A DNA stretch of 64,000 nt from Bdellovibrionales bacterium (GTDB taxonomy: Bacteria; Bdellovibrionota; Bdellovibrionia; Bdellovibrionales; UBA1609): assembly GCA_965243065.1 (NCBI GenBank), contig CBDETO010000005.1, forward strand, positions 987,520 through 1,051,519. The letters are read 5' to 3'. A program made the position numbers and the translations under genes. Numbering within the stretch: the stretch's first letter is position 1; every line of letters starts with the position of its first letter. Positions 1 through 41,186 of this stretch are shown one piece after another. The notes under the pieces were generated by a model that saw only the letters and a list, made by a program, of their open reading frames with translations, searched no databases and had not been told where the DNA came from.

Positions 1-2175
1 GGAGAGTTCACCCCCGATGAGTTGAGAAAATTTATTCATGATCTATTTTTACAGGATAGGGTTATAAATGATACGTTTTTAACTCAGCTGATGCGATTGA
101 AGCAGGTTATTATTGGAGGGCCTGTGGATAAATTGACCATAGAGGATATTGAACGATTTATTGTTTTTGTGGATATCTTGAATAAAGAAGCTCTTTTTTT
201 TCAACCTTATATTCAAATATTGAATGTTACAGGTTCCGAGCAGGTAGGATTGGATACGAGCCATTTAAACGGAACAATTGAACAGCAATTTGCAGATTCA
301 TTAAACCGCATCTCGAGTTTTATCAAACAGTTTTCACATCCTTATCTTCTTTCGGATTTAAAGATACTTGTTCAGGAATTAGATTTCTTTTTTGACCATG
401 AATACGATATATCCAATGTCAATGAAAAAATCAGCTTACTAGGCATCTTAAAACAATTTTCTGTAGGTGGTGAGGATACAGTTATTCAGCCAACCGAATG
501 GGAAGATTTTTTATTAGGACATTCTTATTTAGTTTCTGTCGGTATCAATTATCTGATCTTAAAAAGACAGGGTAACTTTATTTCCACTCAAGGGATCCGT
601 TACATATCTCTGATTCTGCAAGATGTGTTGGATTTTTTATCTCTCGCAGTAAAAAATCGTCCCCAGCATGTAGTGAGCGAGTCTGATTTTTTTAAAGTCA
701 CTTCTTATTTACAGGATACAGGAATATTACCTAAAAATTTTGAAAAGCAGGCTGTACAAAATTTATTACTGATTATCTTTGGAAAAGTGTTTAATGTGGA
801 AAAAGATAGGTATGGAGTGATTGAATTAACATTTCCTCAATTGGATAAAGTGCATAAAGTCATACAGCCTTGGAGAGGAATACAGGATTTTTTAGATCAT
901 ATATCCCATGAAAACATTTTTGAGAAAAACAAGATGCTTCCTTTACCCATATCCTCTTCTTTTTTTTCAGGAAGAGATACCTTTTTAAAGGGGCAGAACA
1001 TGATGAATCAAATACTTTTGCTGAAGCCTCTTTACGGATCTGGAAGAAAAATCAATTTATCGAGGGAAATTTATAGCACAAGGAATATCTTGAAAAAGGC
1101 TCCTGACTATAAAAACCTAACTTTATACAACTTTTATTATCTGATAGCTACTATGATGAGAGAGGGATATGAAAAGGGATACCCTGGAAGTACAGGTATG
1201 ACTCAAAAGGAACTGAGGAGTTTCTTTCAGGATTTTAATATTATTGCTGAAAATATGGGATGGTTCCAAGAAACAGAAAATAGGGCTTTAAACGCTGGGG
1301 AGGCGGAGTTTATAGCAGCTAATATATTAACACCTTCCGCCAAGGGGTTTGGTAAGTGGAATCAAGAGGAGTATCTGACATCAAGTGAAATTGCTGAATA
1401 TCTGTCCTATGCTATTTCTATTGGGTTTTCTCTCTCCGAATTGGAGACGGTTATTTTAAAAAAATGTGGATCCGCCGATCATCATATAGAACCATCTAAG
1501 CACCTTCTTCGCATAGATCATAAATATGATGTTGATTGTGTTCGATTGCATTTAATTCCTGAGTTGGTAAAGCAAGCGAAGAACATGCCTGATTTTCAAA
1601 AAGTGTTATCAAAGATGGATAAAGAACAAAAAAAAGGACTTACAGAAGCCCTTATCAACATCGCCTTTGAGACAGAAGAAGAATATCAACAAGTGTCTTA
1701 TCTGACACAAGGTCATTTGAAAAATATACTTATGGCTGTTTATTTTGTGGAAACCACCATCAATCGCTATGACTTAAATGGAGATTTGATTTTGGACAAC
1801 GATGAGATATGGGCTGCTTACCCTAATTTTAGCGGCTATTTATCCCATGTATTGATTTATTTAATTTGCCACCCCACGGATGATTGGGCGGCGGCCATGT
1901 ATGCTTATGTTATAAAGAATCATCGGTTACCTATGAATGATACTTTGGTATGGCATAAACGGGTGGCGGCGGCTATGCAATTAATTACACATACGGCTCT
2001 CCGTGATTTTAATATAAATTGGTGGGATCTGTATCTGGACCATGAAAAGCTGACGCAGGTGTTTTCCACTCTAGTGAAGGGTTTTATGGCTAAGAGGAGA
2101 GAAAAAAGAAAAAATGAGGAAACATGTAATACAGAACTTTTGAGAACTCTTAGAGATGATGCTTCCTATCCCTAA
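1..2175 (+). CDS. hypothetical protein, 5' partial (frame open to window edge)
   Basis: Track ORF 22..2175 (717 aa). Nt 1-21 are in the same frame with no stop, so the true start is probably upstream of the window. No motif recognised. Confidence 0.5.
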   Translation, partial: GEFTPDELRKFIHDLFLQDRVINDTFLTQLMRLKQVIIGGPVDKLTIEDIERFIVFVDILNKEALFFQPYIQILNVTGSEQVGLDTSHLNGTIEQQFADSLNRISSFIKQFSHPYLLSDLKILVQELDFFFDHEYDISNVNEKISLLGILKQFSVGGEDTVIQPTEWEDFLLGHSYLVSVGINYLILKRQGNFISTQGIRYISLILQDVLDFLSLAVKNRPQHVVSESDFFKVTSYLQDTGILPKNFEKQAVQNLLLIIFGKVFNVEKDRYGVIELTFPQLDKVHKVIQPWRGIQDFLDHISHENIFEKNKMLPLPISSSFFSGRDTFLKGQNMMNQILLLKPLYGSGRKINLSREIYSTRNILKKAPDYKNLTLYNFYYLIATMMREGYEKGYPGSTGMTQKELRSFFQDFNIIAENMGWFQETENRALNAGEAEFIAANILTPSAKGFGKWNQEEYLTSSEIAEYLSYAISIGFSLSELETVILKKCGSADHHIEPSKHLLRIDHKYDVDCVRLHLIPELVKQAKNMPDFQKVLSKMDKEQKKGLTEALINIAFETEEEYQQVSYLTQGHLKNILMAVYFVETTINRYDLNGDLILDNDEIWAAYPNFSGYLSHVLIYLICHPTDDWAAAMYAYVIKNHRLPMNDTLVWHKRVAAAMQLITHTALRDFNINWWDLYLDHEKLTQVFSTLVKGFMAKRREKRKNEETCNTELLRTLRDDASYP

Positions 2176-5893: not shown

Positions 5894-6502
5894 TTACCTG
5901 TTTATGCGGCGAGATTTTTGTTGCTGTTGCCGCCGTTTTTTTCTTTTTTTATCTGTTTTAGTTAAGATATGTTTTTTTTGCTTCTTGTTGTTAAGTGTTT
6001 TTTCTGTGGATAGTTTTTCAGGAGACTTTTTTTCCATCGCGCTTTTTTTTGCTGTATCTTTCTTTTGTTTATCTGCGGTGGGGGGGGGAGCTTCTTTTTT
6101 TTCTTTTGTAGATGGTTTTTGTGTTTTAGAAGTTACGAGAGCTTTATAATCCACAAATTCCAAATAAGCTACGGGGGCTTGGTCACCTGATCGGTACCCC
6201 AGTTTTATAATGCGCGTGTAACCTCCTGGACGAGTTTTAAAGCGAGGAGATAGAACATTAATAATTTTACCTACCGTTTTTTTATTGGGGTAGCGGGAAA
6301 AAAGCAGCCGGCGGGCATGTATATTGTTTTTCTTACCCATAGTCACGGCTTTTTCAACAAGAGGTTGCACACATTTTGCTTTAGCTAAAGTTGTTTTTAT
6401 TCTTTCTTTTTCTACCAAACTGCTTACCAAGCCTCTTAGGAGAGCCTTTCTAGGGCCTCTATGTCTTCCAAAAGAAGAACTTTTTTGTTTGTGATGTCTC
6501 AT
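5894..6502 (-). CDS. rplQ: 50S ribosomal protein L17 with Lys-rich C-terminal tail
   Basis: MRHHKQKSSSFGRHRGPRKALLRGL... is the canonical L17 N-terminus. It lies downstream of rpoA. About 80 extra Lys/Gln-rich residues follow. Confidence 0.92.
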   Translation of the reverse strand: MRHHKQKSSSFGRHRGPRKALLRGLVSSLVEKERIKTTLAKAKCVQPLVEKAVTMGKKNNIHARRLLFSRYPNKKTVGKIINVLSPRFKTRPGGYTRIIKLGYRSGDQAPVAYLEFVDYKALVTSKTQKPSTKEKKEAPPPTADKQKKDTAKKSAMEKKSPEKLSTEKTLNNKKQKKHILTKTDKKRKKRRQQQQKSRRINR

Positions 6503-6533
6503 TTGTGCTCCCTTTAACCTGGCTTTTTATTGT

Positions 6534-8066
6534 TTATTGCTTCTCTTCCGGTGAGGGGGTTTTATTATTTTCTTCCAACGAAGAGGGTTCCTTGTCCTGA
6601 TTTTCCATTTTTTCTTTTTTTAAATGAAAAGAGGATGCACCAGGTTGGTTTTCTTCTATTGAAGTGAGATTTTCAGTTGTCTTTTTTTCCATGTTATCTT
6701 TTGTAAGATTCATATCATTTTCTTTTAGAGAAGGAGATGGGTAGCTCATGGGTTTATTTATAGTAGGTGGGGTTTGTTTTTCTGTAGGTGGTATAGGCTC
6801 AGCAGGCGCAGATGGGGGGGGGGTAGAAGGTGTGTGTGTAGCAGCAGGCGCAGATGGGGGGGTAGAAGGTGTATGTGTAGCAGCAGGCGCAGATGGGGGG
6901 GGGGTAGGAGGTGTAGATACAGTGTAATGGGTTCTTTGTACAGGATGTGTTGGTCCTCCTGTTACAGTAGGGGAAGGAGTGATATTGGAAAAATGAAAGG
7001 GGGGAGCCGGATTTGTAGAGGTGTTTCCCGTGCTGTTTTGGCTTCTATAGGCTTCCATGTCTTTAGGTGGCCACCCTTCTACATCCATACCTAAGGAAAG
7101 TCCCATTTGTTTAATAATATCTTTAATTTCGTTAAGGGATTTTCTGCCAAAGTTTTTTGTTTTTAGCATTTCCTGTTCTGTTTTTGTGACAAGATCTCCA
7201 ATATAACGAATACGAGCATTTTTCAGGCAGTTGGCACTGCGGACAGATAGTTCTAAATCCTCCACTGGCCGGAATAAATTTTTGTTCACCTGAGGTGTGT
7301 CTTCTTTCACTGTCTTTTCTTCTGGTTCTATATCTTCATTGAAATTCATAAATACCTGAATTTGTTCTTTAAGAATTTTGTATCCCAGTGGTACCGCTTC
7401 TTTTGGAGTTAAGGATCCGTCTGTCCAAACCTGTAAGACCAAGGAATCATAGTCTGTTTTTTGACCGACACGGGCGTTAGTCACAGTGTAATTTACGCGT
7501 CGAATGGGAGAGTGAATGGAATCAATAGGAATAAATCCCAAGGGTAAATTACCTGATTGTTCAGAAGCTTCAATATAACCACGATTAAAGGTCACTATAA
7601 TTTCTGCATTAAACTCTGCGTTTTTTCCAAGAGTGGCGATAACCTGTTTGGGATTAATAACTTTAATACCACTGACCAGTTCAATATCATTAGCTGTTAC
7701 CAGACCGGGGCCTTTTTTACTAATTTTTAATCTTTTTTGATCCGCATCTTCTTGTTGAAAACGTACTTGTTTTAAGTTCAGTGTAATGTCGGTAATATCT
7801 TCTAAAACATCAGGGATGGTAGTGAACTCATGTAATACATTTTCAAATTTTACCGCGGAAACAGCAGAACCCATCATAGAACTAAGTAAGATCCGACGAA
7901 TGGCATTACCTAAAGTTAAGCCATAACCTCTCTCCAAAGGACGAATAGTAAATTTTCCATAAATGGAAGTCAGGCTGTCTTTGTCTATCTCAAAACCTTT
8001 TGGTTTTATAAGATTTTTCCAATATTGATAATAATGTGGTTTAATATCTATTTTTTCCATTTCCAT
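6534..8066 (-). CDS. rpoA: DNA-directed RNA polymerase alpha subunit with ~170-aa Pro-rich C-terminal extension
   Basis: 510 aa. N-terminal domain ([22 protein letters not shown]) and alpha-CTD ([23 protein letters not shown]) are both present. The tail contains [14 protein letters not shown] repeats. Confidence 0.95.
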
Positions 8067-18732: not shown

Positions 18733-20028
18733 CTAACGAGGGAGTACAGAAATACGGATAGGAATACCCTTTAAGTTCCATTTGTTTTGAATTTGACGAA
18801 CTAAAAAACGACGATAGGAATCCCGAACTCCTTTTGGATAATTAGCAAAAGCAATAAAAGAAGGAGGAGTATGATGAGTTTGTGTTAAGTAATAAAACTT
18901 AACATCCTGAGTGCCATAAACTGGAGCAGGAGCTTTACGAATCACCTGCATAAAAAAGCGATTTAATTCCGATGTAGAGACGCGAAAATGCAACTTCCCA
19001 TAAACTTCATTCACTTTTTTCATTAAACCACCTAAACCATCAGAATTTAAAGCACTAATAAATACAATAGGTAAATCAGGGTAAAAACGAAACTTTTTTT
19101 GAATATTATTTCTATATTCCTCTTTTGTAGTATTTGCAGCCTTACCATTTAGATCCCATTTATTAACAACCACGATAATAGCTTTATGTTTTTCTACACA
19201 TAAATCAAACAAACGGGCTTCCTGACGGCCAGGGCCAGTAGAGTAATCTATCAATAACAAAATGATGTCCGCTTCCGTAAAACCTTGATCGGATTTTAAT
19301 TCCGCAAGAGACTGCGCCTTACTTTGAGCCTTTTTGGTTTTCCCGGCTGTATCCAACAAAGTATAACTGCGTCCGGCGTATTTAAAATGATTTGTGACGA
19401 CATCTACAGTAGTACCAGCAATAGAGGAAATAAGTACCCGATCCTCCTTAAGTAAAGCATTACATAAAGTGCTTTTACCCACATTTGTTTTTCCGGCTAA
19501 CAAGAGACAAACACCGGAATTTTCAAACACGCTCGTTATACTTTTACTATGAGCTAAAATCCACTCCACTATTTCCACTACACCTCGATCTTGTTCAAAA
19601 GCACAAGATAAAAGAGAAACACCCAAGCAGTAAAAATCACTCAATAATCCGTCTGCTCCCTCAATATCATCCACTTTATTAACAAGAGCTAGAAAAGGTT
19701 TTCCCGATTTCTTTACTAATTGAAAAGTTTTTTTATCCTCTGCCAAAAAACCGGATCGAGCATCCATAATAAATAAAATCAAATCAGACTGCTGAACAGC
19801 GTTTCGAACCTTCTTATCAATTAAATCACCCCACCGGTCATCCTCCGACCATAACCCGCCAGAATCCCATACCTCAAAATCCACCCCCCACCATGATGTC
19901 TTTTGTTTTAAAATATCTCTTGTCACTCCAGGTTGATTAATGACAAGAGCTTTTCTTCTCCGCACTAGCCGATTAAACAAAGAAGACTTACCCACATTAG
20001 GTCGCCCTATAATTAATACACGATTCAT
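18733..20028 (-). CDS. der: ribosome-associated GTPase Der (EngA)
   Basis: Two G domains (GRPNVGKSSLFN and GKTNVGKSTLCN) plus a KH-like C-terminus. Start set at MNRVLIIG (ATG 20028). The longer track ORF reads through a hairpin repeat. Confidence 0.9.
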   Translation of the reverse strand: MNRVLIIGRPNVGKSSLFNRLVRRRKALVINQPGVTRDILKQKTSWWGVDFEVWDSGGLWSEDDRWGDLIDKKVRNAVQQSDLILFIMDARSGFLAEDKKTFQLVKKSGKPFLALVNKVDDIEGADGLLSDFYCLGVSLLSCAFEQDRGVVEIVEWILAHSKSITSVFENSGVCLLLAGKTNVGKSTLCNALLKEDRVLISSIAGTTVDVVTNHFKYAGRSYTLLDTAGKTKKAQSKAQSLAELKSDQGFTEADIILLLIDYSTGPGRQEARLFDLCVEKHKAIIVVVNKWDLNGKAANTTKEEYRNNIQKKFRFYPDLPIVFISALNSDGLGGLMKKVNEVYGKLHFRVSTSELNRFFMQVIRKAPAPVYGTQDVKFYYLTQTHHTPPSFIAFANYPKGVRDSYRRFLVRQIQNKWNLKGIPIRISVLPR

Positions 20029-20056
20029 ATAGCCTACTCTTATACTTAAAAGGTCA

Positions 20057-20097
20057 GGAATCCCCGCCCCCGCTTTCGCTGGAAAAACCTCGCGGAG
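20057..20097. repeat. hairpin repeat family member
   Basis: GGAATCCCCGCCCCCGCTTTCGCTGGAAAAACCTCGCGGAG, just upstream of der. Confidence 0.6.
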
Positions 20098-20113
20098 ATA
20101 TGTTTGCAAAATT

Positions 20114-21157
20114 TTATTGGGTATCTGCTGTTTCCACTAAGAAGCGCAACACCAAATTTTTAGCCTCTTGATAACCCTTCTCTAAATAGACATCACCTAT
20201 TAAAACATAAAAAGCATTCTCTATATTATAAGGTCTTTCTGGATGATTCCATATCACATTAAAAACTTGCTCCAAAAGACTTCTATCTTCGTGATTTAAA
20301 CGATCTAAATCTATTTTATAAATAGATTCCCGCAATAATCTCCTCTTTTTATGTAAATATTCCACTTTTTTATTAGGGTATTGCTCCATCACTATTTCTG
20401 TAATCAATAATATTAAACCTGCAAGTCCTACAACTTGCACTTTGTTCCTGTAAAAGTATTTTATAGGAAACTGGAGCTGTTCTATTTTTTTCCACTCTGC
20501 GAAATGCATACTAGAACGATTCAAATCCGTATATTCTACTCCATTTATGATCCCTGTATCAATAGCTACATTAACCAAACGAACTACCAGCTTTTTAGCT
20601 TCTCGATAACCTCCATCTAAATACACCGCCCCCACCAAAGCTTCCAATACCTTCGCCAACAAAATTGATTTTCTGTTGCTACTTACATCTTTTCCAGCAT
20701 ATTGATCTAATTTAAGAGAAAAAGCCAACGCAACCATAGCCCTGTTTGCTTTCAAGTGATTCCACCCTTTCATTAATTCTATATAACGACCGGGAGGATA
20801 TTGACTTACTAATGTATCAAAGGCATAAAAATTAAAAACAGCATCTCCTAAAAACTCTAATCGCCGACTGTGAAAATAATGTTTTCCATGTTCTCTTATT
20901 TGATCTTTGTTCGTAGCTGTAAAGTAGTGTAGAGCATCTGTCTTTAGTTTTTGATTTTTAAAAGAGTACCCTAAACTTCTCTCTAATAAACCATCCGGGA
21001 CATTTTGAGGCACATCCGATGGAATATAAATAAATATACTTTCTTTATTTCTTTTAAAACCATCCGAACACTCTTCACCAATAATATAAAAATGAATTAA
21101 ACACAGTAGAACACAAACAAAAAAAGGGTTCCTATAAATAAACACTCTAATAGCCAC
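20114..21157 (-). CDS. RNase III paralogue with N-terminal hydrophobic anchor and a second, degenerate RNase III-like domain; no dsRBD
   Basis: RRLEFLGDAVFNF and VLEALVGAVYLDGGYREAKKLVVRLV are near-identical to the adjacent rnc. The C-terminal half repeats the pattern (VVGLAGLILLITEIVMEQYP ... AFYVLIGDVYLEKGYQEAKNLVLRFL) without the acidic residues. Confidence 0.7.
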   Translation of the reverse strand: MAIRVFIYRNPFFVCVLLCLIHFYIIGEECSDGFKRNKESIFIYIPSDVPQNVPDGLLERSLGYSFKNQKLKTDALHYFTATNKDQIREHGKHYFHSRRLEFLGDAVFNFYAFDTLVSQYPPGRYIELMKGWNHLKANRAMVALAFSLKLDQYAGKDVSSNRKSILLAKVLEALVGAVYLDGGYREAKKLVVRLVNVAIDTGIINGVEYTDLNRSSMHFAEWKKIEQLQFPIKYFYRNKVQVVGLAGLILLITEIVMEQYPNKKVEYLHKKRRLLRESIYKIDLDRLNHEDRSLLEQVFNVIWNHPERPYNIENAFYVLIGDVYLEKGYQEAKNLVLRFLVETADTQ

Positions 21158-21176
21158 ACTCCCTGTACTTATACTG

Positions 21177-21256: not shown

Positions 21257-21442
21257 TTATGTTCTATAAAGATATTCCCATTTTTTGTAAATATATTTTG
21301 TAAATAATATGAAAAAATTAATAATCTGTTATAATATTTTCACACTTATCTACCCACCACATCCAATATCTTGGGGTCGTATTAACTTCATAATACGCAC
21401 AAAAGAAGAACCATATAACAGACCCCAGAATTCGTAATTTTC

Positions 21443-22189
21443 TCACTCCTGCTTTTGAGAGATAGGAGCTATTCCTAGTTTTTTTAAAGCGGCTAGAGCC
21501 GCTTCCTGCGTGGCTTGTTTTTTACTGGACCCTTTTCCCTGGCCTAAAACCTTTTGATCCATTTGCACTTCCATTACAAAGACTTTATCATGTTGAGGTC
21601 CTTTTATTTCCACTGTACTATAGGTGGGAACTTTCTGAAATTTCTTCTGAATACACTCTTGAAGGAAGCTTTTATAATCTTTATTCACCGGTCCGGTTTT
21701 TATGGCCTCCCCCACTAACCGCATCACCAATTTTTTAGCTTGCTTATATCCCCCATCCAGATAAACCGCCCCCACTAAAGCCTCCAATACACAAGCTAGA
21801 AGCCGAGGTTTTAATTTTCCTCTATCTCTTTCTTCAGCAGCACTCAATTTCAGATCCTTATCCAAGCCTAAAAAAAGAGCTAAATCAGCCAGATCATTTG
21901 TATTCACCAACGAAGCCCGCATCTTAGATAGCTCTCCTTCATCTGCAAAAGGGTATTCCTGCATCAATAAATCACTCACACACAAATCAAAAACAGCATC
22001 CCCTAAAAATTCCAAACGTTCGTTATGAAAATCATTTCCCTTTTCTCCGGCTAAACTCTTATGAGTTAAAGCGCGTATTTTTAAATTTTTGTTTTTAAAA
22101 GAATAAGCAATACGGCTTTCCAATGAAAGATCGGAAGAGGGCCCTTTTCTTCTCTGCCATAGTGAACGAACAAAAGTTTTCATACTCAT
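21443..22189 (-). CDS. rnc: ribonuclease III
   Basis: NERLEFLGDAVFDL signature, VLEALVGAVYLDGG, and a C-terminal dsRBD (GPQHDKVF...GKGSSKKQATQEAALAALKKL). Confidence 0.9.
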   Translation of the reverse strand: MSMKTFVRSLWQRRKGPSSDLSLESRIAYSFKNKNLKIRALTHKSLAGEKGNDFHNERLEFLGDAVFDLCVSDLLMQEYPFADEGELSKMRASLVNTNDLADLALFLGLDKDLKLSAAEERDRGKLKPRLLACVLEALVGAVYLDGGYKQAKKLVMRLVGEAIKTGPVNKDYKSFLQECIQKKFQKVPTYSTVEIKGPQHDKVFVMEVQMDQKVLGQGKGSSKKQATQEAALAALKKLGIAPISQKQE

Positions 22190-27474: not shown

Positions 27475-30400
27475 TTAACAAGAAGAATTTTGCAATTGAG
27501 TTATCTTCTTATTAATATCTTCTATTTTTTGCTTCGTATCTTCTACATCATATAAAATAATTTGCTTATTATCAGAAGAATCAATGTTATCCCAATATTT
27601 TATCATATATTGAATACCAAGAGGTTCAAAAGCACCTTTACCTGATTTTAAATCAACAGAAGTAGTACCACTTGGACAGCTTTCAGTTAATTTGCGTAAT
27701 GAATAGGGTAACTTATTTTTTACACATAGGCGATAATACTTTCCCATATCTATTAGGCTATGTGATACCTTACAATAATAAGGGCTTTCTCCAAGAACAC
27801 TCCCACTAGAGCATCCCCCCCAACCATTATACCGACGACAACGTCTGGTGCTCGTTATACTATTTATATCAGGTAGATTAAGAGAACCAACCACACCCTT
27901 TGTAGTCATATATGTACCTGCTGTACGAACAGCATTTCTAGCCTCACTTCTTTTGGATTTTAAAAATATAGATCCCATTGGCCAAGGCCGACTTAGTCGT
28001 AAATTCTTAACAAAAGGAGGATTTTCTTGTGCTGCAGTGCCATTCTCATACCTATGCCTTAAAGCCACCCAGGCCATAGGATTTGCCACCGTTTTTTGAT
28101 ATAAAAAAGAGTTGGGAGGCATATCACTGTCAGAAACTCCTGGATTTGGATAAGGGTACTGGTCATCATTGCTGTTTAAAGCCAGCATGGCCTTAACCCA
28201 ATCCATACTGGACTCAGGAGGTACAAAACGACCTCCATACATATTACATTTTTCAACCCCCTCTGTGGCTTTACCTTTCGTATTACTTATAAAAAAATGA
28301 TCTTTATTTGAACCGGATTTTTTCTGACATACAAAGGGCAGCTCCTCACTAGCCGGTTGTGGTGAAAGTCCCTTCCACCGAATATTATGAGACAAAGCCA
28401 TATATTGCTCATCACTAAAACTCTCACTGTCGTCTCTCAACAAAATAGGAGAATGGGCATTGGCTTTACTAAAATAAAGAGAAAAAGGCGCGTCTTTAGC
28501 CACCAAGGCCCAAGGAGGAGAAGCTACCACTGCGCCACCGGCATCCCACTCCATAGCAGTCCATAATTTATATCCCGCTCTCCTTGCCACCTCACTACTG
28601 ATAAAAGCCTTTATCACTTCCTCAATACTAGTAGGTAAAATAGACAAATTAAGGGGAGGAGGAGCTAAAAACAAGCCTCTGCTAACATTATTAATGAAAT
28701 TGAATTTTAAATTACTGGGGTTTTCCAGAGTAAAACTAGATGTGTTATCTCCCGGTAAAGCGGTCACTGCCGATATGGCCTTCTGAGCTGAATTCCCATT
28801 ATCATTTGGTTGATAAGTATTAAAAAGTAGAATAGCTAAATCATAATATCGCCCCTTTTCCCTGCCCATTTCAAAGCAAATCTTCTGAGCGTCTCGAAAT
28901 GGAGCCGTAATCCATTGTAAAGGCTGCGTGGTATTATTTGAAAGCCTCATCGCCGGATAATAATGTCCATTCACAAAACAAAGAACAGGTAATTTGCTGG
29001 TACACTTTACTGCCTCATACTGAGTGTCACGAAAATCCTTAAAAGAGTCTAAACTATTAAAATTCTTTACAGCTATACCTTTACATCCATTATCTCCCGG
29101 ATCATATAAGGCTCCCTGATTAGCAGCTGTAGAAGGTAAATTCCTTATATATCTATATTTGTCTTTAATGGAACATTCAGGAACTTGACCATCTAAAGGT
29201 TCATCGGCCAAGCCATATATAAACTGTTGGCTTCCTTGTTGATTTTGTGTAGTCACTATAGATTTTTCCGTATTGTAAGGACCGAAGGTCCCCAGTCCAT
29301 AACGATGACAGGCTTTCATGTGACATACAGTACAGCGCACCCGATTACTTACATCATTGCCATTACTTACATCACTGCTATAATCCTTTTCAAAAATCAT
29401 TCCATTCTTTTTGTCTTCGTGAATATTTATAACCGGATATACATAACTGGCTTCTTCCGTGGGCTTGTAAGTTTTACATATTTCCTGGCAAACAGGTGCT
29501 ATATCAGTCATAACCTCAAAACTACTGGCCCCCCTTGGTATGTTGAATTTTATATTATTCTTATTTCCTTCTATCCGCTTCCCTTTATTACTACTGTGAT
29601 ATAAGGAAAGTGTGCCGGATTCCAATACTCCGTCATCTGTACCATCTAGCTCTGAATTCCCTTTTTTTAAAGTTACATTAATAGCTTTGATGGGTAGGCT
29701 GCGAGGTTTGTAATTTATAACATTAAATGTAAATTGGAGATCATCGTAGTCAGCACTGTCATTTAATAACTCTTGTCTGCACTTGAATTTATTCTTTACA
29801 CAGCTGACTTTTGTATTTAAGCCAGATAAAGCAAATAAATCAAAGTTCTCCACCCTGCCAGCTTGGACAATATCTTCATTGATATTCAATATTTCTAGCT
29901 TACGAGAATGGCCACTAAATATAGGGCTGTTAAACACATTTCTGTTGAATGTGGTTCCAGGTCCTGTACCTGAAAATTTGACAATGGTTTTTTTACCGTC
30001 CACCGCCGTTATATTGCACTCACCTATCTCGTTAGCCCACACAATATCCGATGAGGAACTTTTATAAGTAGTCAATCCCTCATCCAACATACCTTCCCTC
30101 ATCAATTCAGTTCTCAGATAAAAAACCACTCTTTTAGAGTCTATAAGACTACCCCTTTGTTGATGGATATCAATAGAGTTAAATTGAGGAAAAACTTTTG
30201 GAATAATTTGAGCTATAGCATAAATAACCATACCGGCCGTCTCTTCACTGCCTCGATATACAAGACATCGGCTTAAATTGTTATTAGAAAAAGAAGCATT
30301 TATTTTTCTGCATTTTTCTTTTGCCGCATTCCCTGATAAAAGCTCCCATTCCGACTTTGAAAAAAAATACTTCCAACGGCTTTTATTCCAACTGCTTTTA

Positions 30401-30810
30401 TCTTGCATTTTAAATAAATTGAGATCCACTTGTTCTATTCCATAAAAATCTGCCGGTGGTTTAACAAGAGAACAAATACCATAAGTATTTACCTTATTCT
30501 TCGTCTTGGGAGTTTCTCCGTTTTCATCCAGGTTTTTTTCTATTAACAGAGACTTCATCCCATTAATAATCCTGGCTTTCAAAATGGGCTTATAGTGCAC
30601 TTGCTCGACAGTACTTTGGCTGGTTTTCCTAACATTACTGGTATAATGCACTAAGCCTGTTCCACTGATGACCAGTAAAGAAAAAGCCACAAGACTCCCC
30701 ATGACCGAAAAACCTTTAGTAGAAAAAAAGAGAGAAGTTTCAGAAGCTCTCTTCCTTTTAGAGAACATAAAGAAACAACCGGAAAATCTAAACATTCTTT
30801 TTTTTGCCAT
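27475..30810 (-). CDS. very large minor-pilin-like / pilus-associated surface protein (1111 aa)
   Basis: N-terminus STKG|FSVMGSLVAFSLLVISGTGL is a prepilin-like hydrophobic helix lacking Glu5 (GspK/PilX-like). The remainder is Cys-rich with no domain I can name. It is the last gene of the 35764->27475 cluster. Confidence 0.5.
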   Translation of the reverse strand: MAKKRMFRFSGCFFMFSKRKRASETSLFFSTKGFSVMGSLVAFSLLVISGTGLVHYTSNVRKTSQSTVEQVHYKPILKARIINGMKSLLIEKNLDENGETPKTKNKVNTYGICSLVKPPADFYGIEQVDLNLFKMQDKSSWNKSRWKYFFSKSEWELLSGNAAKEKCRKINASFSNNNLSRCLVYRGSEETAGMVIYAIAQIIPKVFPQFNSIDIHQQRGSLIDSKRVVFYLRTELMREGMLDEGLTTYKSSSSDIVWANEIGECNITAVDGKKTIVKFSGTGPGTTFNRNVFNSPIFSGHSRKLEILNINEDIVQAGRVENFDLFALSGLNTKVSCVKNKFKCRQELLNDSADYDDLQFTFNVINYKPRSLPIKAINVTLKKGNSELDGTDDGVLESGTLSLYHSSNKGKRIEGNKNNIKFNIPRGASSFEVMTDIAPVCQEICKTYKPTEEASYVYPVINIHEDKKNGMIFEKDYSSDVSNGNDVSNRVRCTVCHMKACHRYGLGTFGPYNTEKSIVTTQNQQGSQQFIYGLADEPLDGQVPECSIKDKYRYIRNLPSTAANQGALYDPGDNGCKGIAVKNFNSLDSFKDFRDTQYEAVKCTSKLPVLCFVNGHYYPAMRLSNNTTQPLQWITAPFRDAQKICFEMGREKGRYYDLAILLFNTYQPNDNGNSAQKAISAVTALPGDNTSSFTLENPSNLKFNFINNVSRGLFLAPPPLNLSILPTSIEEVIKAFISSEVARRAGYKLWTAMEWDAGGAVVASPPWALVAKDAPFSLYFSKANAHSPILLRDDSESFSDEQYMALSHNIRWKGLSPQPASEELPFVCQKKSGSNKDHFFISNTKGKATEGVEKCNMYGGRFVPPESSMDWVKAMLALNSNDDQYPYPNPGVSDSDMPPNSFLYQKTVANPMAWVALRHRYENGTAAQENPPFVKNLRLSRPWPMGSIFLKSKRSEARNAVRTAGTYMTTKGVVGSLNLPDINSITSTRRCRRYNGWGGCSSGSVLGESPYYCKVSHSLIDMGKYYRLCVKNKLPYSLRKLTESCPSGTTSVDLKSGKGAFEPLGIQYMIKYWDNIDSSDNKQIILYDVEDTKQKIEDINKKITQLQNSSC

Positions 30811-30849: not shown

Positions 30850-32343
30850 TTAATGAGGGGGAATGTATCGCACTATAGTTGTAAGAAAATCAAAAGTTTT
30901 AACAGTAACAGTACTCTGTAATGTAACAGACTGTTCTACCTTTTTAGGGTAAAACACTCTCCTAGGCTCAATATGCGGGTATAAACAAACCCCACCTGAA
31001 CCACATGATGTATTAACTGAATATTGATTATTGCAAGAACCGGGTATTTGTTTTCTATTGCCAAAACTATCCGTACTGCGCTCCACACAAATCCCTATCG
31101 GTGTAAATAAAGACCCTACCCTGTAAGTAAGAGACATAAGGGGCTGGGCATGCACATTAATACTGCTGGAAGAAGTCGTACTGGTACTAGTAAAAGGGTT
31201 AACTCCCCGAAACTGTCCACGGGGAACTCGATTTAAGGGAAATGGAGAATTATTAATCTCTATAGTTGTAGTTTGACTTGTTATTTTATACCTTACTTTC
31301 TCCGTACAAGTAACTCTGTCCTGAACGATAAATGACTCTCCCGGGTGAACCACTTCTTTACCATCTCTTTCCAACAAATCATCAGTCACTTGGTAGAATT
31401 TAAGCGGATCTCCCTTTTTATCCTTTTCCACTATAGATGTCTGCTCTCTTAACAAAGATAAAGCATAAATGACACCAGGTCCGTTGTTGGTTAATTTCAT
31501 CTGTAGATTAGAATATTCCTTCCCAGAAGGAGGTACAAATTCCCCACGGCATTCAGGATACCTGTACCCGGTATCACTAGAGGCACAGGTCAACTCACAT
31601 TTTGCATTACTCTCCAATGCCATAGTGACATGAGATAAAGGTCTCCTGATACCGGCATGGTGAAATTCCTGTTTTTCTCCTTCCGATTTAACTGCAACCA
31701 AAACAATATAAAAATCCTGATCGGCCTCCTTAATATACTCACACACAGAGTTAGGTATAGGCGCGTTCGTACCCTCATCTACACACTTTTGTTGATTAGG
31801 AGGAGTGCACTTTCCAGGTATCATTTTCAATGTCTTTTTATGCCGACATACGGCTGTAGGTATCTCCCCAATAAGATTTTGAATATAAGAGTCCTTCCAA
31901 TTCACCAGATTAAATTGGATGGTGTAATTCAGAGGCTTCCCGCCATTTAAAGTGGGTTCATTTTTTATCTGACCTTCTATCGTTAAAATATCCTTCCCAG
32001 CTACTTTTGTTAATGCAGGTGAACTTAGGTTATAGTCCTGTAATCGAATAGTGCTGTCGTAGGTATTCCATTTACACAAAGCCGTCGTGTCTTTCCAACC
32101 TGTTTCTTTACATAAAACCAAATTATTGGCAACTAGATAACCTCCTAAAGTAAAACCATATTTAGCAGTAAGATGGCTTTCCCAATCTTCCTTATTTAAC
32201 TCTATGTTGGATAGAAACCAATTAATACTTTTTTGACTATGAAATATAGTAGATAACACGGCCCCGGATACCATCAAAGATAAAATAATAGCCGCACTTC
32301 CCGCTTTTTTTGAAAAATAATGAGTAGGTACAAAATTATCCAT
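30850..32343 (-). CDS. PilX-like minor pilin / pilus assembly protein (497 aa)
   Basis: N-terminus KKAGSAAIILSLMVSGAVLSTIF resembles the PilX N-terminal segment. Cys-rich extracellular part. Confidence 0.45.
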   Translation of the reverse strand: MDNFVPTHYFSKKAGSAAIILSLMVSGAVLSTIFHSQKSINWFLSNIELNKEDWESHLTAKYGFTLGGYLVANNLVLCKETGWKDTTALCKWNTYDSTIRLQDYNLSSPALTKVAGKDILTIEGQIKNEPTLNGGKPLNYTIQFNLVNWKDSYIQNLIGEIPTAVCRHKKTLKMIPGKCTPPNQQKCVDEGTNAPIPNSVCEYIKEADQDFYIVLVAVKSEGEKQEFHHAGIRRPLSHVTMALESNAKCELTCASSDTGYRYPECRGEFVPPSGKEYSNLQMKLTNNGPGVIYALSLLREQTSIVEKDKKGDPLKFYQVTDDLLERDGKEVVHPGESFIVQDRVTCTEKVRYKITSQTTTIEINNSPFPLNRVPRGQFRGVNPFTSTSTTSSSSINVHAQPLMSLTYRVGSLFTPIGICVERSTDSFGNRKQIPGSCNNQYSVNTSCGSGGVCLYPHIEPRRVFYPKKVEQSVTLQSTVTVKTFDFLTTIVRYIPPH

Positions 32344-32881: not shown

Positions 32882-35764
32882 TTAATTTTTATTCTTCTCG
32901 ACTTTTTGTTGTGCCTCTTCTATATCCTTAAGCTTTATTTTTAATTGTGTGAGTTCTTTTTGTTGCGATGTAAGTGCTTCCTGCTGTGATGTAAGGATTT
33001 CTTGTTGTAAAAGAATAAGGGTGTTTAATTTCTTTATCTCCTCTTTCTCTTTGGCCCATGTCTTTTTTATTTCCTCTATTTCGTTTATAATAACTGTTAC
33101 CTTTTCTGTAAGTGTTTTTATTGCCGACGAGGTATTTTCTTTAATGGCTATTACCTCCTCTGTTACTTTTTTTAATGCTGACAAAGTGTTTTCTTTAAAA
33201 CCTTCAAATTTAATAATTAAAGCTTTTATAGCAGCCCAAAAGGTCCCGTAAATAGAAGGCATATCTGGCATAGAAGGCTGGCCTTTGTCTTTAATCTGAA
33301 GATAATGGGGCAATTCCTCGGAAATAAAACCCATACGACTTTTATTTGGGTGGTCCTCTTTGTACTCATAAGTAAATAAAGGGGTCTTTTTTATATCTTT
33401 ATAAACTCTCTCAAAGTTTTTAAATTTTTTAATGTTTTTCTTATACACCCGAGAGGAGGGAGTGCCATGACTGTGACCCGCAGGAGCGTAGCCACTATGA
33501 CCATGACCGGATGGAGAGTAAGGATGAGTATGAGCATCTAGGGCATGGTGACCATTATGATTATGACCAGGCATGGAAGGACAAGTAGAACCACCACAGC
33601 TAAATACCCCCGAGGTGAGATTAATACCCCCTTCCACCTCAAGTCCATCTGCATGCACCTTTAGTTTTTTTGCAACATCTAAAGTCCCATGAATCACAGC
33701 CCCAGGAGAAGAGGGAATGAAAGGATTGGAGGAGGGGGGGGCACTCGTATTTAACTTTCCTAAAATTAAGTTTCCGATATTCAGTTGGTTGGATCCTGTT
33801 TTGCTAATTCCCACATGGGATCCAGAATTAGGTGGCCCTACCTCACTCCCTATATATATGTTTTCATTACCTGAAGTATTATATATACCTGCTTGAAATC
33901 CCAAGAAGGTATTTTTATCTCCCGTGCAGTTCACAGACCAAGCCTGTCTTTCTGCTTCACCGCCAGGGTCAACCCAAAGATATGTAAATGGAGTGGAAGG
34001 TATGCATATCCCAGCATTACCTCCTAAAAACACATTTTGTTTTCCTGTCCCATAAAATGCCCCCGAGTGAAATCCTACAAAAGTATTTTCACCCGCTTTA
34101 TTAAAATACCCCGATCCTCCACCTACATAAAGATTATGAATAGATGTTTCATTATATTTTCCTGTTGCAGCTCCTAAGAAAGTATTCTGTGATCCTGTTA
34201 TATTCGACCTACCCGCATCCATCCCTAAAAAGGTATTCCAACGAGCTGTATTTGAGTTTTGACCCGCTCGTGCCCCTATATAGGTATTACCCACGCCAGT
34301 TGCATTAAGTCTTCCTGCCTTGTGACCTATAAAAACATTGTGAGAAGCTTCAAAAATACTACTGGTTGTGTCATCTTCTGTGGTGTATTTACCCGCTTCG
34401 TGCCCCACAAAGACATTGTTCCGCGCAGTTGTAGCACTAAAACCTGCATAACGACCTATATAGACATTTTCATCCCCTGTAGTATTAGAGTGGCCTACAG
34501 CAGCACCTATAAAGATGTTACTTTTACCGGTGGTATTAAAATAACCTGCATTACTACCCAAAAAAACATTGCTACTACCCAAAGTATTGGCATAGCCTGC
34601 TTGATAACCTACAAAAGTGTCGTTACTACCCAAAGTATTAGAATAACCCGTATGATAACCCATAAAAACATTAAATGCTCCTTTCTGATTAACAACTGTA
34701 CCTGGTATAGTATTAATCCCCGACTCAAATCCAAAGGCCGTCACCGTGCTGACAGGTATCTTTGAGGTGCCCCCACAACCTATTAAAGCTCTTCCTTTGC
34801 CCAATTCTGAACCAGGAGAAATTAAACGTTCAACACTATCAGGGTGTACATTCTGAGTTATAGAAGGCCCATCAAAATCCACCGTATAACAAGAGATATT
34901 GTCCCCACCTACGCAATTTAAAGTATCACAGGCTACGACATCCGGGTTACTCGCCACATTCTCCAACCTATAATCCAGATCACATTCCAAAAAGTAACAC
35001 CCGCTCGTATCACTGCTGGTACAATCACCCCCATCTAATGTGTTTAAATCCTTTGTCTGCTTCTTGCTGTAATACACCACAAATTTTCTATTTACTGTAG
35101 CTGTCTTAGGGTTCTGAGTTGCATCACCTGTAAGTTCTAGCTTTACAATATCCAAGTTCCCCTTAAAAGACTTCCCCTCCTCCAGCAAGGCCACACCATC
35201 TTGCTCCAACTTACTAATCGTGCCTATCCCCTTTTGACTGTTACTCCCTGTAAGTCTGCCCGCTTCCGGCTTTAAATTAGCCTTACAGTAATTATCATTT
35301 GTAAGAATGTTATTTACGGCTATTCGTAACTCCTGCTCAGAAAAAGTCCCTCTTACCACCTGAGAAGACTGCATAGATACCGTGGCTAATTGCAGGGTCC
35401 CCACAGTAATCACCGCCATTAAACCTATGACTACCAGAATCTCCAATAAGGAAAATCCACCTTTGTTGCAAAGCTGGCCCAGAGAAAACAAAGATGGCTT
35501 CCCGTTTCCGCAGTCTATCCAGGAAAACAATTTCCAAGGAAACAAGCTTGATACTGGATCAGATGGATTCCCGCTTCCGCGGGAATTGCACCTGCTCACT
35601 TTCGTAAGGACTAGCCTCGAGGGGAGCTTTGTCCCCGCTTCCACTTTCGAAAGCTTTGCGGAAAATAACCGGATGAATATACCTGAAGTTAGTTCTCTGA
35701 ATGAATGAATGAATGAATGAATGAATGAATGAATGATTTTTTCACACTTCTTACTTCCCTGCAA
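32882..35764 (-). CDS. type IV pilin-like N-terminus fused to tail-fibre-like repeats, HxH cluster, S74-type intramolecular chaperone domain and coiled coil
   Basis: NKGG|FSLLEILVVIGLMAVITVG prepilin motif at codons ~100-125. G/N/T-rich 13-16-aa repeats. GHNHNGHHALDAHTHPYSPSGHGHSGYAPAGHSHG. SSRVYKKNIKKF...LFTYEYK...RMGFISEELP. Start ambiguous: TTG 35764 (longest ORF) or TTG 35491 (GGGAAG 6 nt upstream, 12-aa leader). Confidence 0.7.
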   Translation of the reverse strand: MQGSKKCEKIIHSFIHSFIHSFRELTSGIFIRLFSAKLSKVEAGTKLPSRLVLTKVSRCNSRGSGNPSDPVSSLFPWKLFSWIDCGNGKPSLFSLGQLCNKGGFSLLEILVVIGLMAVITVGTLQLATVSMQSSQVVRGTFSEQELRIAVNNILTNDNYCKANLKPEAGRLTGSNSQKGIGTISKLEQDGVALLEEGKSFKGNLDIVKLELTGDATQNPKTATVNRKFVVYYSKKQTKDLNTLDGGDCTSSDTSGCYFLECDLDYRLENVASNPDVVACDTLNCVGGDNISCYTVDFDGPSITQNVHPDSVERLISPGSELGKGRALIGCGGTSKIPVSTVTAFGFESGINTIPGTVVNQKGAFNVFMGYHTGYSNTLGSNDTFVGYQAGYANTLGSSNVFLGSNAGYFNTTGKSNIFIGAAVGHSNTTGDENVYIGRYAGFSATTARNNVFVGHEAGKYTTEDDTTSSIFEASHNVFIGHKAGRLNATGVGNTYIGARAGQNSNTARWNTFLGMDAGRSNITGSQNTFLGAATGKYNETSIHNLYVGGGSGYFNKAGENTFVGFHSGAFYGTGKQNVFLGGNAGICIPSTPFTYLWVDPGGEAERQAWSVNCTGDKNTFLGFQAGIYNTSGNENIYIGSEVGPPNSGSHVGISKTGSNQLNIGNLILGKLNTSAPPSSNPFIPSSPGAVIHGTLDVAKKLKVHADGLEVEGGINLTSGVFSCGGSTCPSMPGHNHNGHHALDAHTHPYSPSGHGHSGYAPAGHSHGTPSSRVYKKNIKKFKNFERVYKDIKKTPLFTYEYKEDHPNKSRMGFISEELPHYLQIKDKGQPSMPDMPSIYGTFWAAIKALIIKFEGFKENTLSALKKVTEEVIAIKENTSSAIKTLTEKVTVIINEIEEIKKTWAKEKEEIKKLNTLILLQQEILTSQQEALTSQQKELTQLKIKLKDIEEAQQKVEKNKN
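35495..35655. repeat. cluster of hairpin repeat units inside the 5' leader of the pilin-fibre ORF
   Basis: GGATTCCCGCTTCCGCGGGAATTGCA (35565-35590), GTCCCCGCTTCCACTTTCGAAAGC, GGCTTCCCGTTTCCGC. Confidence 0.65.
35698..35736. repeat. tetranucleotide simple-sequence tract (TGAA)9+TGA; (ATTC)9 on the coding strand
   Basis: Counted directly. Translated in the track ORF as IHSFIHSFIHSF. Confidence 0.95.
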
Positions 35765-39494: not shown

Positions 39495-41186
39495 GTGTTT
39501 AGAAAAATAGAGGAATTGTTCATGTTTTTAAAAGGATTATATATGGCCGTCTTGCAGAACACTGTATCACTTTTAGCCGGGAGAATTTATTATCTCTCTT
39601 TGATTTTTTTAGTAACTGTCAATTCACAAGCTTTTTCTGCTTTAGCTTGTGAAGATTTTGCTCGATCACGCTACTCAACTTCCGTAAATGATGCGGCAAA
39701 AAGCTATAGGCAACTTCTCACTAGGTTGGCTCAGTCCAGCTTGAAAGTAAAAGAATTAAATCCTCAGCAGATAAAAGCTTTAGAGCATTACTATAGTGTG
39801 GTTCAAGGGGAGACAGGAAAAGACGGCACTTTTGCCAGAGCGGGTAATTATACGGTAGGCCAGAGAAGAAAGATCATAAAATACCTTGAGGACCAAGGGT
39901 TTTCCCGTGAACAAGTGAGAAGGTTAATAGAAGATGGAATAGTGGAAATTAATCGTGTAACAAGACCAAAGCTAAATACAAGGAGAATTTTAAATAATAT
40001 TAATGAGTTAAAACCTGTTTTTGCTGCAAACTCCGCACGCTCAGTAAAAGTAAATAAAGTGGAAAGAACAGATCATAATCTTTTAGTGAAAATAGAGAGA
40101 ATAGATCCTAAAACTGGTGAATTACTCACAGAAGATGTGATCATTCCTCTGCGTCCTAGTGAATTACTCATAGAAACACTGCTTATAGAAGCAGGTTGGT
40201 TGGTAAGTCCTGAATTTGAACTTGTATTTACTGCTGCTCGTTCCACCAGGAAAAAAGTGGATTCTAAGGACTTAAAACTTCCACCACCCACTAATGAAGA
40301 AACTAAATTATTGAAGCAAGATTATAAAGCCAGCTATACGAGAGGTTTAGATCAAGTTAATGAATGGGCCTATGTTCGCAGACGACTTCAAGAACTAAAG
40401 GCCAACCCTCGAATAACCCATATTGAGTATTTTGCGAATCAAATTCCTGATCATATTGCCCATATAAAAAGAGGTTTTGAAGAAAGTTATCTTGAGTCTC
40501 ATTTTTTTGGTAGCAAGTCGAAACAACTACAACACCTAGAGAGTCTGGAAGTAGAAGCAAAGAAAGCTATTGCAGGTAAGAAAGTCACTTATCAGTGGTG
40601 GCTAGAGTTTAACCATAAGTTATCTACAGTGATGGCAGGAGCCCATCCCGAAAATAGAGCGGACAGAGGCATGATTGAGGATGTAGTATCTGATTTTCCA
40701 TTAAAAATCATAATACCAACCACTATAGAAGATATAGGAATTATGGCTTTCAATATATCCAGGTTTGAAGGTGTGTATCCAGCAAGTGTGAGTAATAAAA
40801 ATAATAATAGTGCAGATGCTACACAATATACCTCCTCTGCTTTTTTTGCACATGATGTAGAACATTCTATATTTAACGGTAATAGGCTTTATATGGATTA
40901 TTCTATGAGCCATAGACTATTGCATAAAAGATTATTAGATAATATGGAAAGTCTCCCACCGAATAAAAGAAAAAAAGCGGAAAGGGTTTATTTTATTATG
41001 ACACATGAAAGTGATACCAATATTCTTAACTCTGATCTGACATTAAAAGAAATAAAAATCGCTATAATGGAAGATATTTCTGGCGTTTTTAAACTCTCCG
41101 ATGATCCTGCTCAAAAACAAAAAAAACTAGAAGATCTGGCCGACACTTTTATGGAAGTGTATAACCAGGCACAGCAACATCAATAA
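39495..41186 (+). CDS. hypothetical protein with N-terminal hydrophobic segment
   Basis: 563-aa ORF. Signal/anchor-like LSLIFLVTVNSQAFSALA. No motif recognised. Confidence 0.45.
   Translation: MFRKIEELFMFLKGLYMAVLQNTVSLLAGRIYYLSLIFLVTVNSQAFSALACEDFARSRYSTSVNDAAKSYRQLLTRLAQSSLKVKELNPQQIKALEHYYSVVQGETGKDGTFARAGNYTVGQRRKIIKYLEDQGFSREQVRRLIEDGIVEINRVTRPKLNTRRILNNINELKPVFAANSARSVKVNKVERTDHNLLVKIERIDPKTGELLTEDVIIPLRPSELLIETLLIEAGWLVSPEFELVFTAARSTRKKVDSKDLKLPPPTNEETKLLKQDYKASYTRGLDQVNEWAYVRRRLQELKANPRITHIEYFANQIPDHIAHIKRGFEESYLESHFFGSKSKQLQHLESLEVEAKKAIAGKKVTYQWWLEFNHKLSTVMAGAHPENRADRGMIEDVVSDFPLKIIIPTTIEDIGIMAFNISRFEGVYPASVSNKNNNSADATQYTSSAFFAHDVEHSIFNGNRLYMDYSMSHRLLHKRLLDNMESLPPNKRKKAERVYFIMTHESDTNILNSDLTLKEIKIAIMEDISGVFKLSDDPAQKQKKLEDLADTFMEVYNQAQQHQ

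Follow-up and report, generated by a model that had tools for sequence, protein, structure and literature searches.

A predicted Sec-exported RNase III pseudo-dimer with one degenerate domain, encoded beside rnc in a Bdellovibrionales bacterium

Next to the canonical RNase III gene, rnc, in a 64,000-nucleotide stretch of DNA from a Bdellovibrionales bacterium (contig CBDETO010000005.1; this whole stretch is called the window here) lies a gene for a 347-amino-acid (347-aa) RNase III paralogue. We propose, with a probability of about one-half, that this paralogue is exported by the Sec route and forms an RNase III pseudo-dimer within one chain, in which no more than one catalytic site remains, and that one probably weakened. 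RNase III is the textbook homodimeric bacterial enzyme, which cuts both strands of double-stranded RNA (dsRNA), each subunit of the dimer supplying one site, and fused tandem RNase III domains are regarded as an innovation of the eukaryotic enzymes Drosha and Dicer. Coordinates given below are window positions unless another locus is named; (-) and (+) denote the strand.

Two RNase III domains and their catalytic residues

The maximal open reading frame (ORF) of the paralogue, at 20114..21157 (-), is unbroken across 347 codons from a GTG at 21157 to a TAA stop at 20114-20116, exactly as described in an earlier account made from the DNA letters alone (the sequence-only reading). Canonical rnc, the apparent parent of the duplication described below, encodes an RNase III domain and a dsRNA-binding domain (dsRBD) at 21443..22189 (-), across a 285-nt spacer from the paralogue. 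The gene for the ribosome-assembly GTPase Der (der/engA) is directly downstream of the paralogue at 18733..20109 (-), and a MiaB-like radical-SAM gene lies further upstream, beyond rnc. No third RNase III paralogue was found within the window.

BLASTP gave two independent alignments between the paralogue and the catalytic domain of the neighbouring rnc product, one of residues 58-205 (48% identity; E = 3e-32) and the other of residues 235-346 (27% identity; E = 7e-9). We delimited the corresponding regions as RNase III domain a (residues 57-200; 20558..20989 (-)), which keeps the acidic residues E101, D105, and E172, and RNase III domain b (residues 222-344; 20126..20494 (-)), a catalytically dead pseudo-domain. 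They are joined by an inter-domain linker (residues 201-221; 20495..20557 (-)), at the place where other members of the family carry a dsRBD. The whole paralogue scored 70.2 bits against Pfam PF14622 (cut-off, 35) and 59.1 bits against PF00636 (cut-off, 27), and the scan returned two Ribonucleas_3_3 stretches rather than one, with the C-terminal half taken alone falling below threshold (20-21 bits versus the cut-off of 35). A profile of that half, built from 17 family sequences, matched a profile of the rnc genes of the clade with an HHalign probability of 99.7% (E = 1.6e-25), and the C-terminal halves of 16 of the 17 members matched PF14622 individually. The internal duplication is thus real, well beyond chance, and the degenerate second domain claimed by the sequence-only reading was borne out. 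The same holds for its claim that the paralogue has no dsRBD: there was no dsrm (PF00035) match in the paralogue at E <= 1 in Pfam, whereas the rnc control has one. Against the RNase III equivalog TIGR02191 (NCBIfam; cut-off, 166.25), the paralogue scored 77 bits and the adjacent rnc 222.9.

Domain a also shares near-identical blocks with rnc, namely, RLEFLGDAVF and VLEALVGAVYLDGGY..AKKLV.RLV. Recent gene conversion was considered as their source and rejected, since the synonymous positions have diverged: where the two proteins have the same residue, the third codon base is shared in just 6 of 10 cases in the first block and 12 of 23 in the second. The shared blocks therefore reflect constraint at the protein level, and their near-identity to rnc suggests a constraint on domain a beyond a scaffold role.

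AlphaFold2, run with a 35-sequence alignment, gave a model with a mean predicted local distance difference test score (pLDDT) of 82.8 and a predicted template modeling score (pTM) of 0.81, in which an N-terminal helix (residues 2-25) is followed by a helical domain a (57-200) and a helical domain b (222-344). Residues 28-56 (20990..21076 (-)) form a low-confidence linker (pLDDT, 48-61) that is probably flexible, and pLDDT is also low at residues 210-217, within the inter-domain linker. The top Foldseek matches in the PDB were human Drosha chains, aligned over ~390 columns across both RNase III domains (RIIIDs) with a template modeling score (TMq) of 0.55-0.56, followed by DCL3, Dicer, and Giardia Dicer (TMq, 0.44-0.48), whereas bacterial RNase III chains (from Aquifex, Campylobacter, and Escherichia coli) matched one domain only (TMq, ~0.35). 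When the family sequence profile was compared with PDB sequences, Drosha was likewise matched in two stretches. The model supports packing of the two domains as an intramolecular pseudo-dimer, the pairing that the sequence-only reading had put forward.

In RNase III, two Mg2+ ions are bound by E40, D44, D107, and E110 in the Aquifex enzyme, which correspond to E41, D45, D114, and E117 in E. coli (PMC3867540). Domain a of the window copy keeps three of these four ligands, its tetrad being E101, D105, K169, and E172. In the signature motif RRLEFLGD (20843..20866 (-)), E101 corresponds to E41 and D105 to D45, and R98 replaces the accessory Glu E38/E37; in the motif KVLE (20642..20653 (-)), E172 corresponds to E117/E110, and K169 (codon AAG) stands at the position of D114 in E. 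coli and D107 in Aquifex. Both changes, K169 and R98, were overlooked in the earlier account. Elsewhere in the family, most members keep all four ligands in domain a; the D114 position is Asp in most relatives and Asn or Thr in some, and Lys was found only in the window copy. At the positions of E41, D45, D114, and E117, domain b carries Q, L, N, and Y, so that none of the four is acidic, and the equivalents of D45 and E117 are lost in all family members examined. What domain b retains is the L-x-(F/V)-(L/V)-G interface motif and a G-x-x-Y-L core, and the signature-motif glycine (G244), which lies in the dimer-interface helix, is invariant across the domain b sequences of the family.

Because domain b is dead, there can be at most one catalytic center per chain, and only one strand would be cut. 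One-site, one-strand cutting seems likely in most family members, as judged from their intact tetrads, and to this extent, at the level of sequence, the single active half-site put forward by the sequence-only reading stands. For the window copy itself, catalytic activity is uncertain, given Lys169 and Arg98. An unlikely but credible alternative is that the paralogue is a catalytically dead, exported dsRNA-binding pseudo-enzyme, whose role outside the cytoplasm would be to bind, sequester, or sense a ligand, structured RNA or some other. It would account for a Lys in place of an Mg2+ ligand and an Arg in place of E38, since the E110K substitution in Aquifex RNase III, which puts a Lys into the same pocket, abolishes metal binding (PMC8943300); it also fits the loss of both dsRBDs from the window copy and the existence of a full-length member (P0131) whose domain a has lost E41, D45, and E117, with D114 kept. 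It sits less well with the conservation of E101, D105, and E172 and their flanks, which are kept as in rnc while the same positions have drifted in domain b, and the rnc of the clade also lacks the Asp, so that the loss of this residue by itself is no proof of inactivity. We lean slightly toward a weakened or altered-metal enzyme over a dead one for the window copy, because the catalytic motifs of domain a are conserved like those of rnc while the same positions drifted in domain b and because the Asp is missing, and its loss tolerated, even in the essential rnc of the clade.

The substitution in rnc is an observation in its own right. The housekeeping enzyme of this clade has a Cys (C133; codon 21791..21793 (-), in LLACVLEALVG) at the D114/D107 position and keeps the other three ligands, and this Cys is invariant in the window rnc and in all 12 aligned orthologues (P0010-P0031; 64-91% identity). 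Since the housekeeping gene has an invariant Cys there, this clade can evidently do without a carboxylate at the D114 position. An rnc without it is unusual and may use a different metal chemistry, and the Cys-for-Asp replacement puts the universality of the four-carboxylate site in question.

The N-terminal leader and the start of the gene

Residues 1-27 of the paralogue (21077..21157 (-)), largely coincident with the modeled helix 2-25, have the features of a Sec-type signal peptide that is found family-wide: an n-region with R4 and R9, a run of 18 uncharged residues (NPFFVCVLLCLIHFYIIG), and Ile at -3 and Gly at -1 ahead of EEC. They are followed by CSDGF (residues 30-34; 21056..21070 (-)), an instance of a conserved C-x-x-G-F motif, whose Cys is the only one in the predicted mature protein. 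We scored these features heuristically in 21 N-complete family members and in seven rnc controls from the clade. All 21 members had an n-region with K or R followed by 14-25 uncharged hydrophobic residues, their h-regions ended in small residues (FST, FSA, FG, or VQA), and all 21 had C-x-x-G-F 3-10 residues past the end of the leader, the Cys usually being the only one in the mature protein; none of the seven controls showed the leader or the motif.

Orthologues of the paralogue at two other loci, L001 and L002, have an intact frame that starts from AGGAG plus ATT and encodes ...FLLLFIQVQA/TGGECPDGF, in which VQA/TG (the slash marks the predicted cut) reads as a textbook site for signal peptidase I. 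The leader is thus probably a Sec-type signal peptide that is cleaved, and the body of the paralogue is predicted to lie on the periplasmic side even if it is not, given the charges flanking the leader of the window copy (+2 on the N-terminal flank and -1 on the C-terminal flank). The sequence-only reading had rightly picked out the hydrophobic N terminus, which is conserved throughout the family, but had called the protein membrane-anchored; a cleaved export signal appears likelier than an anchor. A lipoprotein was also considered and rejected, there being no lipobox ([LVI][ASTVI][GAS]C), with charged residues preceding the Cys (EEC, GEC, KKC, GKC, and similar).

If the leader instead held the protein at the membrane facing the cytoplasm, like the N-terminal anchor of RNase Y, the paralogue might serve in rRNA or ribosome maturation with Rnc and Der or modulate Rnc through heterodimers. 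This would suit the conserved place of the gene between rnc and der, the length of the uncharged stretch (14-25 residues, in the upper range for signal peptides), and the C-terminal flank being more positive than the N-terminal flank in several members, e.g., P0016 and P0126. However, such synteny is the expected leftover of a local rnc duplication and says little about function; the n-region is positive and without acidic residues in most members, and small residues or AXA-like sites end the h-region; the flanking charges of the window copy predict an N-in/C-out orientation; and the modeled pairing of domains a and b would leave no free dimer interface for Rnc. We consider a tethered, cytoplasm-facing protein improbable.

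The true start of the gene is probably either the ATT at 21151-21149 or the GTG at 21145, rather than the GTG of the maximal ORF. The ATT lies 7 nt after a Shine-Dalgarno sequence, AGGGAG (21159..21164 (-)), in the same place as the ATT start of the L001 and L002 orthologues, and an independent gene call (P0001) begins the paralogue at GTG 21145. In the L001 and L002 orthologues the conserved frame does not open with an ATG, GTG, or TTG, and the probable ATT start falls 6-7 nt past a strong Shine-Dalgarno sequence (L001, 7788..7793; L002, about 6907..6912). With ATT as the likely start, gene callers truncate the protein (P0002 and P0003) or choose a nearby GTG (P0001). We rejected the idea that the L001 and L002 orthologues are N-truncated pseudogenes, as their frames are intact back to the Shine-Dalgarno sequence and the ATT, the callers having used an internal ATG or TTG.

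Further upstream, a promoter-like element (TTTACA-17 nt-TATAGA; 21263..21291 (-)) is kept with L001 and L002 inside a spacer between rnc and the paralogue that has otherwise diverged, which suggests that the paralogue has a promoter of its own, apart from that of rnc. A generic promoter and terminator scan gave nothing above shuffled expectation, so that it is the conservation with L001 and L002, on its own, from which the promoter is proposed. Neither a structured RNA nor an autoregulatory hairpin in the spacer was supported: the fold was not significant (folding z-score, -0.97), and Rfam, at the gathering threshold, gave no match on either strand of the whole window.

Family, origin, and selection

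When 1.84 billion cluster representatives were searched exhaustively by HMMER with the family profile, ~25 proteins (clusters counted at 50% identity) aligned to the two-domain profile over its full extent in a single stretch, each with at least 199 bits. Below these scores there was a clear break, followed by generic rnc products and eukaryotic Dicer-like proteins. The family is rare, and we propose that it is a small family specific to a clade labeled Bdellovibrionales. A scan of genome contigs with the family alignment was uninformative about distribution, the 80 loci among the matches listed all being ordinary rnc (28-37% identity).

Four architectures were found behind the signal peptide. 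The window gene, P0004, and P0005 have domains a and b only (a-b), P0006, P0016, P0026, P0123, and others have a-dsRBD-b, P0007, P0009, P0124, and others have a-b-dsRBD, and P0126 and P0129 have a-dsRBD-b-dsRBD. The gene order rnc, paralogue(s), der was found in four of five contexts (the window, L001, L002, and L004). In the fifth, L003, a family member lies directly upstream of der with no rnc adjacent, so that adjacency to der holds in all five; there, on a 1.83-Mb circular contig, the a-dsRBD-b protein P0006 is encoded at 6001..7332, abutting der. In L001 and L002 two paralogues stand in a row after rnc, as against one in the window, giving three consecutive RNase III-type genes (rnc and paralogues A and B) ahead of der, at L001 6775..10123 and L002 5891..9149. 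The window paralogue is the orthologue of the first of the two (A), at ~48-50% identity.

The existence of variants that carry one dsRBD or two speaks for a fusion between two complete copies of rnc, and local duplication of rnc followed by fusion would explain why domain a is 48% identical to rnc and why the variants keep dsRBDs of the bacterial type; the location of the gene beside rnc and der agrees with such a history. The simplest course of events would thus be tandem duplication of rnc, fusion, death of the second site, and repeated loss of dsRBDs.

Two groups of proteins outside the family are of interest beside it. P0154, P0168, and P0235, from JGI and Logan metagenome contigs, form what looks like a separate family, again with two RNase III domains of which the second is degenerate (second-domain motifs RLGFIGPH and VDTVRALIG). 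P0154 and P0168 have an N terminus like a signal peptide, P0235 is without one and is perhaps N-truncated, and C-terminal to the domains there are Sel1 repeats in P0154 and long Ser/Pro/Thr-rich tails otherwise. Judged by these features, the group may be a second, independent exported RNase III with an active-plus-dead tandem. P0070 (480 aa; RIIID-dsRBD-RIIID-dsRBD) is a direct fusion of two complete rnc copies and a bacterial-looking tandem of a different kind. Both of its signature motifs are intact, and it lacks a leader.

Paralogues A and B evolve much faster than the adjacent rnc. Between L001 and L002, the synonymous divergence (dS) is 0.025 for rnc, 0.137 for A, and 0.685 for B, and the ratio of nonsynonymous to synonymous rates (omega) is 0.31 for A, the window-type paralogue, and 0.25 for B. 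This 27-fold range of synonymous divergence across three adjacent genes may reflect recombination or allelic exchange affecting the paralogues. The window rnc and that of L001 are 87% identical, compared with 50% for the paralogue, and the closest of the aligned rnc orthologues, P0010 (labeled Bdellovibrionales bacterium), is 91% identical to the window rnc. In paralogue A of L002, the signature helix of domain b has been removed by an in-frame deletion of 30 aa, which shows that individual copies can decay.

Such rapid change, together with the lost catalytic residues and dsRBD, the L002 deletion, and a copy number that varies from two in L001 and L002 to one in the window, is what one would see in a decaying rnc duplicate without a function of its own. 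We nevertheless regard this as very improbable. Purifying selection (an omega of ~0.3), the intact frame, and the conserved promoter-like element all argue against a pseudogene: the 347-codon frame is open here and in relatives, omega stays at 0.25-0.31, the signal peptide, the Cys motif, and the core of domain b are kept across ~25 divergent clusters, and the promoter-like element is accompanied by a Shine-Dalgarno sequence. The intact frames also argue against pseudogenes among the relatives, a possibility that the sequence-only reading had left as a way to overturn its own proposal.

Elsewhere in the window, five large ORFs (497-1111 aa) are without a Pfam match at E <= 1e-5, at 22..2175 (+), 27475..30810 (-), 30850..32343 (-), 32882..35764 (-), and 39495..41186 (+); their neighbors are housekeeping genes (rpoA, uvrA, phoH-PIN, fusA, and a sodium:solute symporter gene). 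The rpoA ORF (6534..8066 (-); 510 aa) has a C-terminal extension of ~190 residues, the Pfam RpoA domains stopping at residue 319.

Proposed mechanism, known counterparts, and meaning

The proposal of an exported one-site pseudo-dimer may be set out as follows. An rnc gene would have been duplicated in place and the two copies fused, after which lineages lost one or both dsRBDs. In the product, the leader would be followed by the flexible linker carrying Cys-x-x-Gly-Phe and then by domains a and b folded together, paired like the two subunits of the bacterial RNase III homodimer so as to form a single dsRNA-binding valley, with domain b acting only as a structural partner. One strand of a duplex or stem would be cut (a nick or a single cut), with no staggered double cut. 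The window copy would act on structured RNA in the periplasm or extracellularly, cutting one strand either weakly or with altered metal use; prey, environmental, or phage RNA are possible substrates.

Several points weigh against this proposal. K169 places a positive charge in the metal pocket, so that the window copy may be fully inactive, and no dsRBD is left to hold a substrate. The pairing of domains a and b comes from a model, which the use of a multiple-sequence alignment of homodimeric relatives could have biased, and the deletion in L002 may mean that domain b is not indispensable. The case for export draws on heuristics and conservation, and we know of no extracytoplasmic dsRNA substrate.

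Single-site cleavage by RNase III domains has precedents. Artificial heterodimers of E. coli RNase III in which a single site is active nick dsRNA (PMC3867540, citing Meng and Nicholson, 2008, and Conrad et al., 2002), and in trypanosomes KREN1-3 are thought to pair with the degenerate KREPB4/5 for single-strand cleavage (PMC3867540; PMC5648035). The paralogue would share with both the pairing of an active domain with a degenerate one and the logic of a single site. It differs in that the trypanosome partners are separate polypeptides in mitochondria and the E. coli heterodimers separate polypeptides studied in vitro, whereas the halves of the paralogue are fused, bacterial, and apparently exported.

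Set beside Rnc (TIGR02191; PDB 2NUG and 7R97), the paralogue has in domain a a direct relative with the same signature motifs and all-helical fold, and its modeled a-b pair mimics the Rnc homodimer. Unlike Rnc, it has two domains per chain, no dsRBD, a predicted signal peptide, and one domain without catalytic residues, which leaves it with one catalytic center at most, whereas the Rnc homodimer has two. The lack of a dsRBD recalls Mini-III (PDB 4OUN), whose RNase III domain is active and specific without one (PMC3867540), but Mini-III is a single-domain cytoplasmic homodimer with two active sites, and the match between the paralogue profile and 4OUN was weak and partial (E = 8e-7 over ~60 residues).

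With Drosha and Dicer (class 3/4; PDB 6LXD, 9ASM, 2FFL, and 7VG2), the paralogue shares the tandem RIIIDa-RIIIDb layout in one polypeptide, predicted to form a pseudo-dimer. Among PDB structures it was these enzymes that matched best across the two domains (TMq, 0.44-0.56), and they also gave the top two-stretch hits of the sequence profile. Both sites work in Drosha and Dicer (PMC3867540), whereas the paralogue has one dead domain, is only 347 aa long, and carries a bacterial Sec leader, and neither PAZ, helicase, nor any other eukaryotic accessory domain gave a Pfam match in it. The sequence-only reading was right about the two-domain layout, but the resemblance is convergent, the tandem having arisen independently of Drosha and Dicer from the neighboring bacterial rnc. 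In short, the paralogue is like a miniature Drosha/Dicer core with the active-plus-dead logic of KREN/KREPB but belongs to neither group, being derived from rnc, free of eukaryotic accessory domains, and dead at one of its sites. A role as a component of an anti-phage defense system was considered and rejected, there being no PADLOC-DB match at E <= 0.01.

Most surprising of all is the secretion signal. Full-text literature searches turned up no account of an RNase III from bacteria that is exported or has tandem domains, and to our knowledge no RNase III of any kind acts outside the cytoplasm. Pressed further, the proposal would make the paralogue the first extracytoplasmic RNase III: a secreted, Drosha-like, one-site enzyme of a Bdellovibrio-like (possibly predatory or epibiotic) bacterium that nicks or opens structured RNA outside its own cytoplasm. 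Its targets might be prey rRNA during feeding or the dsRNA or highly structured RNA of phages and competitors, and Cys-x-x-Gly-Phe might be a new sorting or attachment signal. We put this extended form forward tentatively and think it rather unlikely as a whole.

Taken together, these results show that bacteria made a tandem RNase III fusion independently and then inactivated one half, as in the arrangement of the trypanosome editosome. If the extracytoplasmic one-site reading is true, a design of fused active and dead domains would have arisen independently in bacteria, in eukaryotic relatives of Drosha and Dicer, and in trypanosome editosomes. If both export and single-strand cleavage hold, the paralogue would be a compact (~320-aa) natural dsRNA nickase and a possible reagent; it would also offer a tractable model for the evolution of pseudo-dimeric RNase III, because intermediates with two, one, and no dsRBDs still exist, and it would bring a new participant into the turnover of extracellular RNA or into predation.

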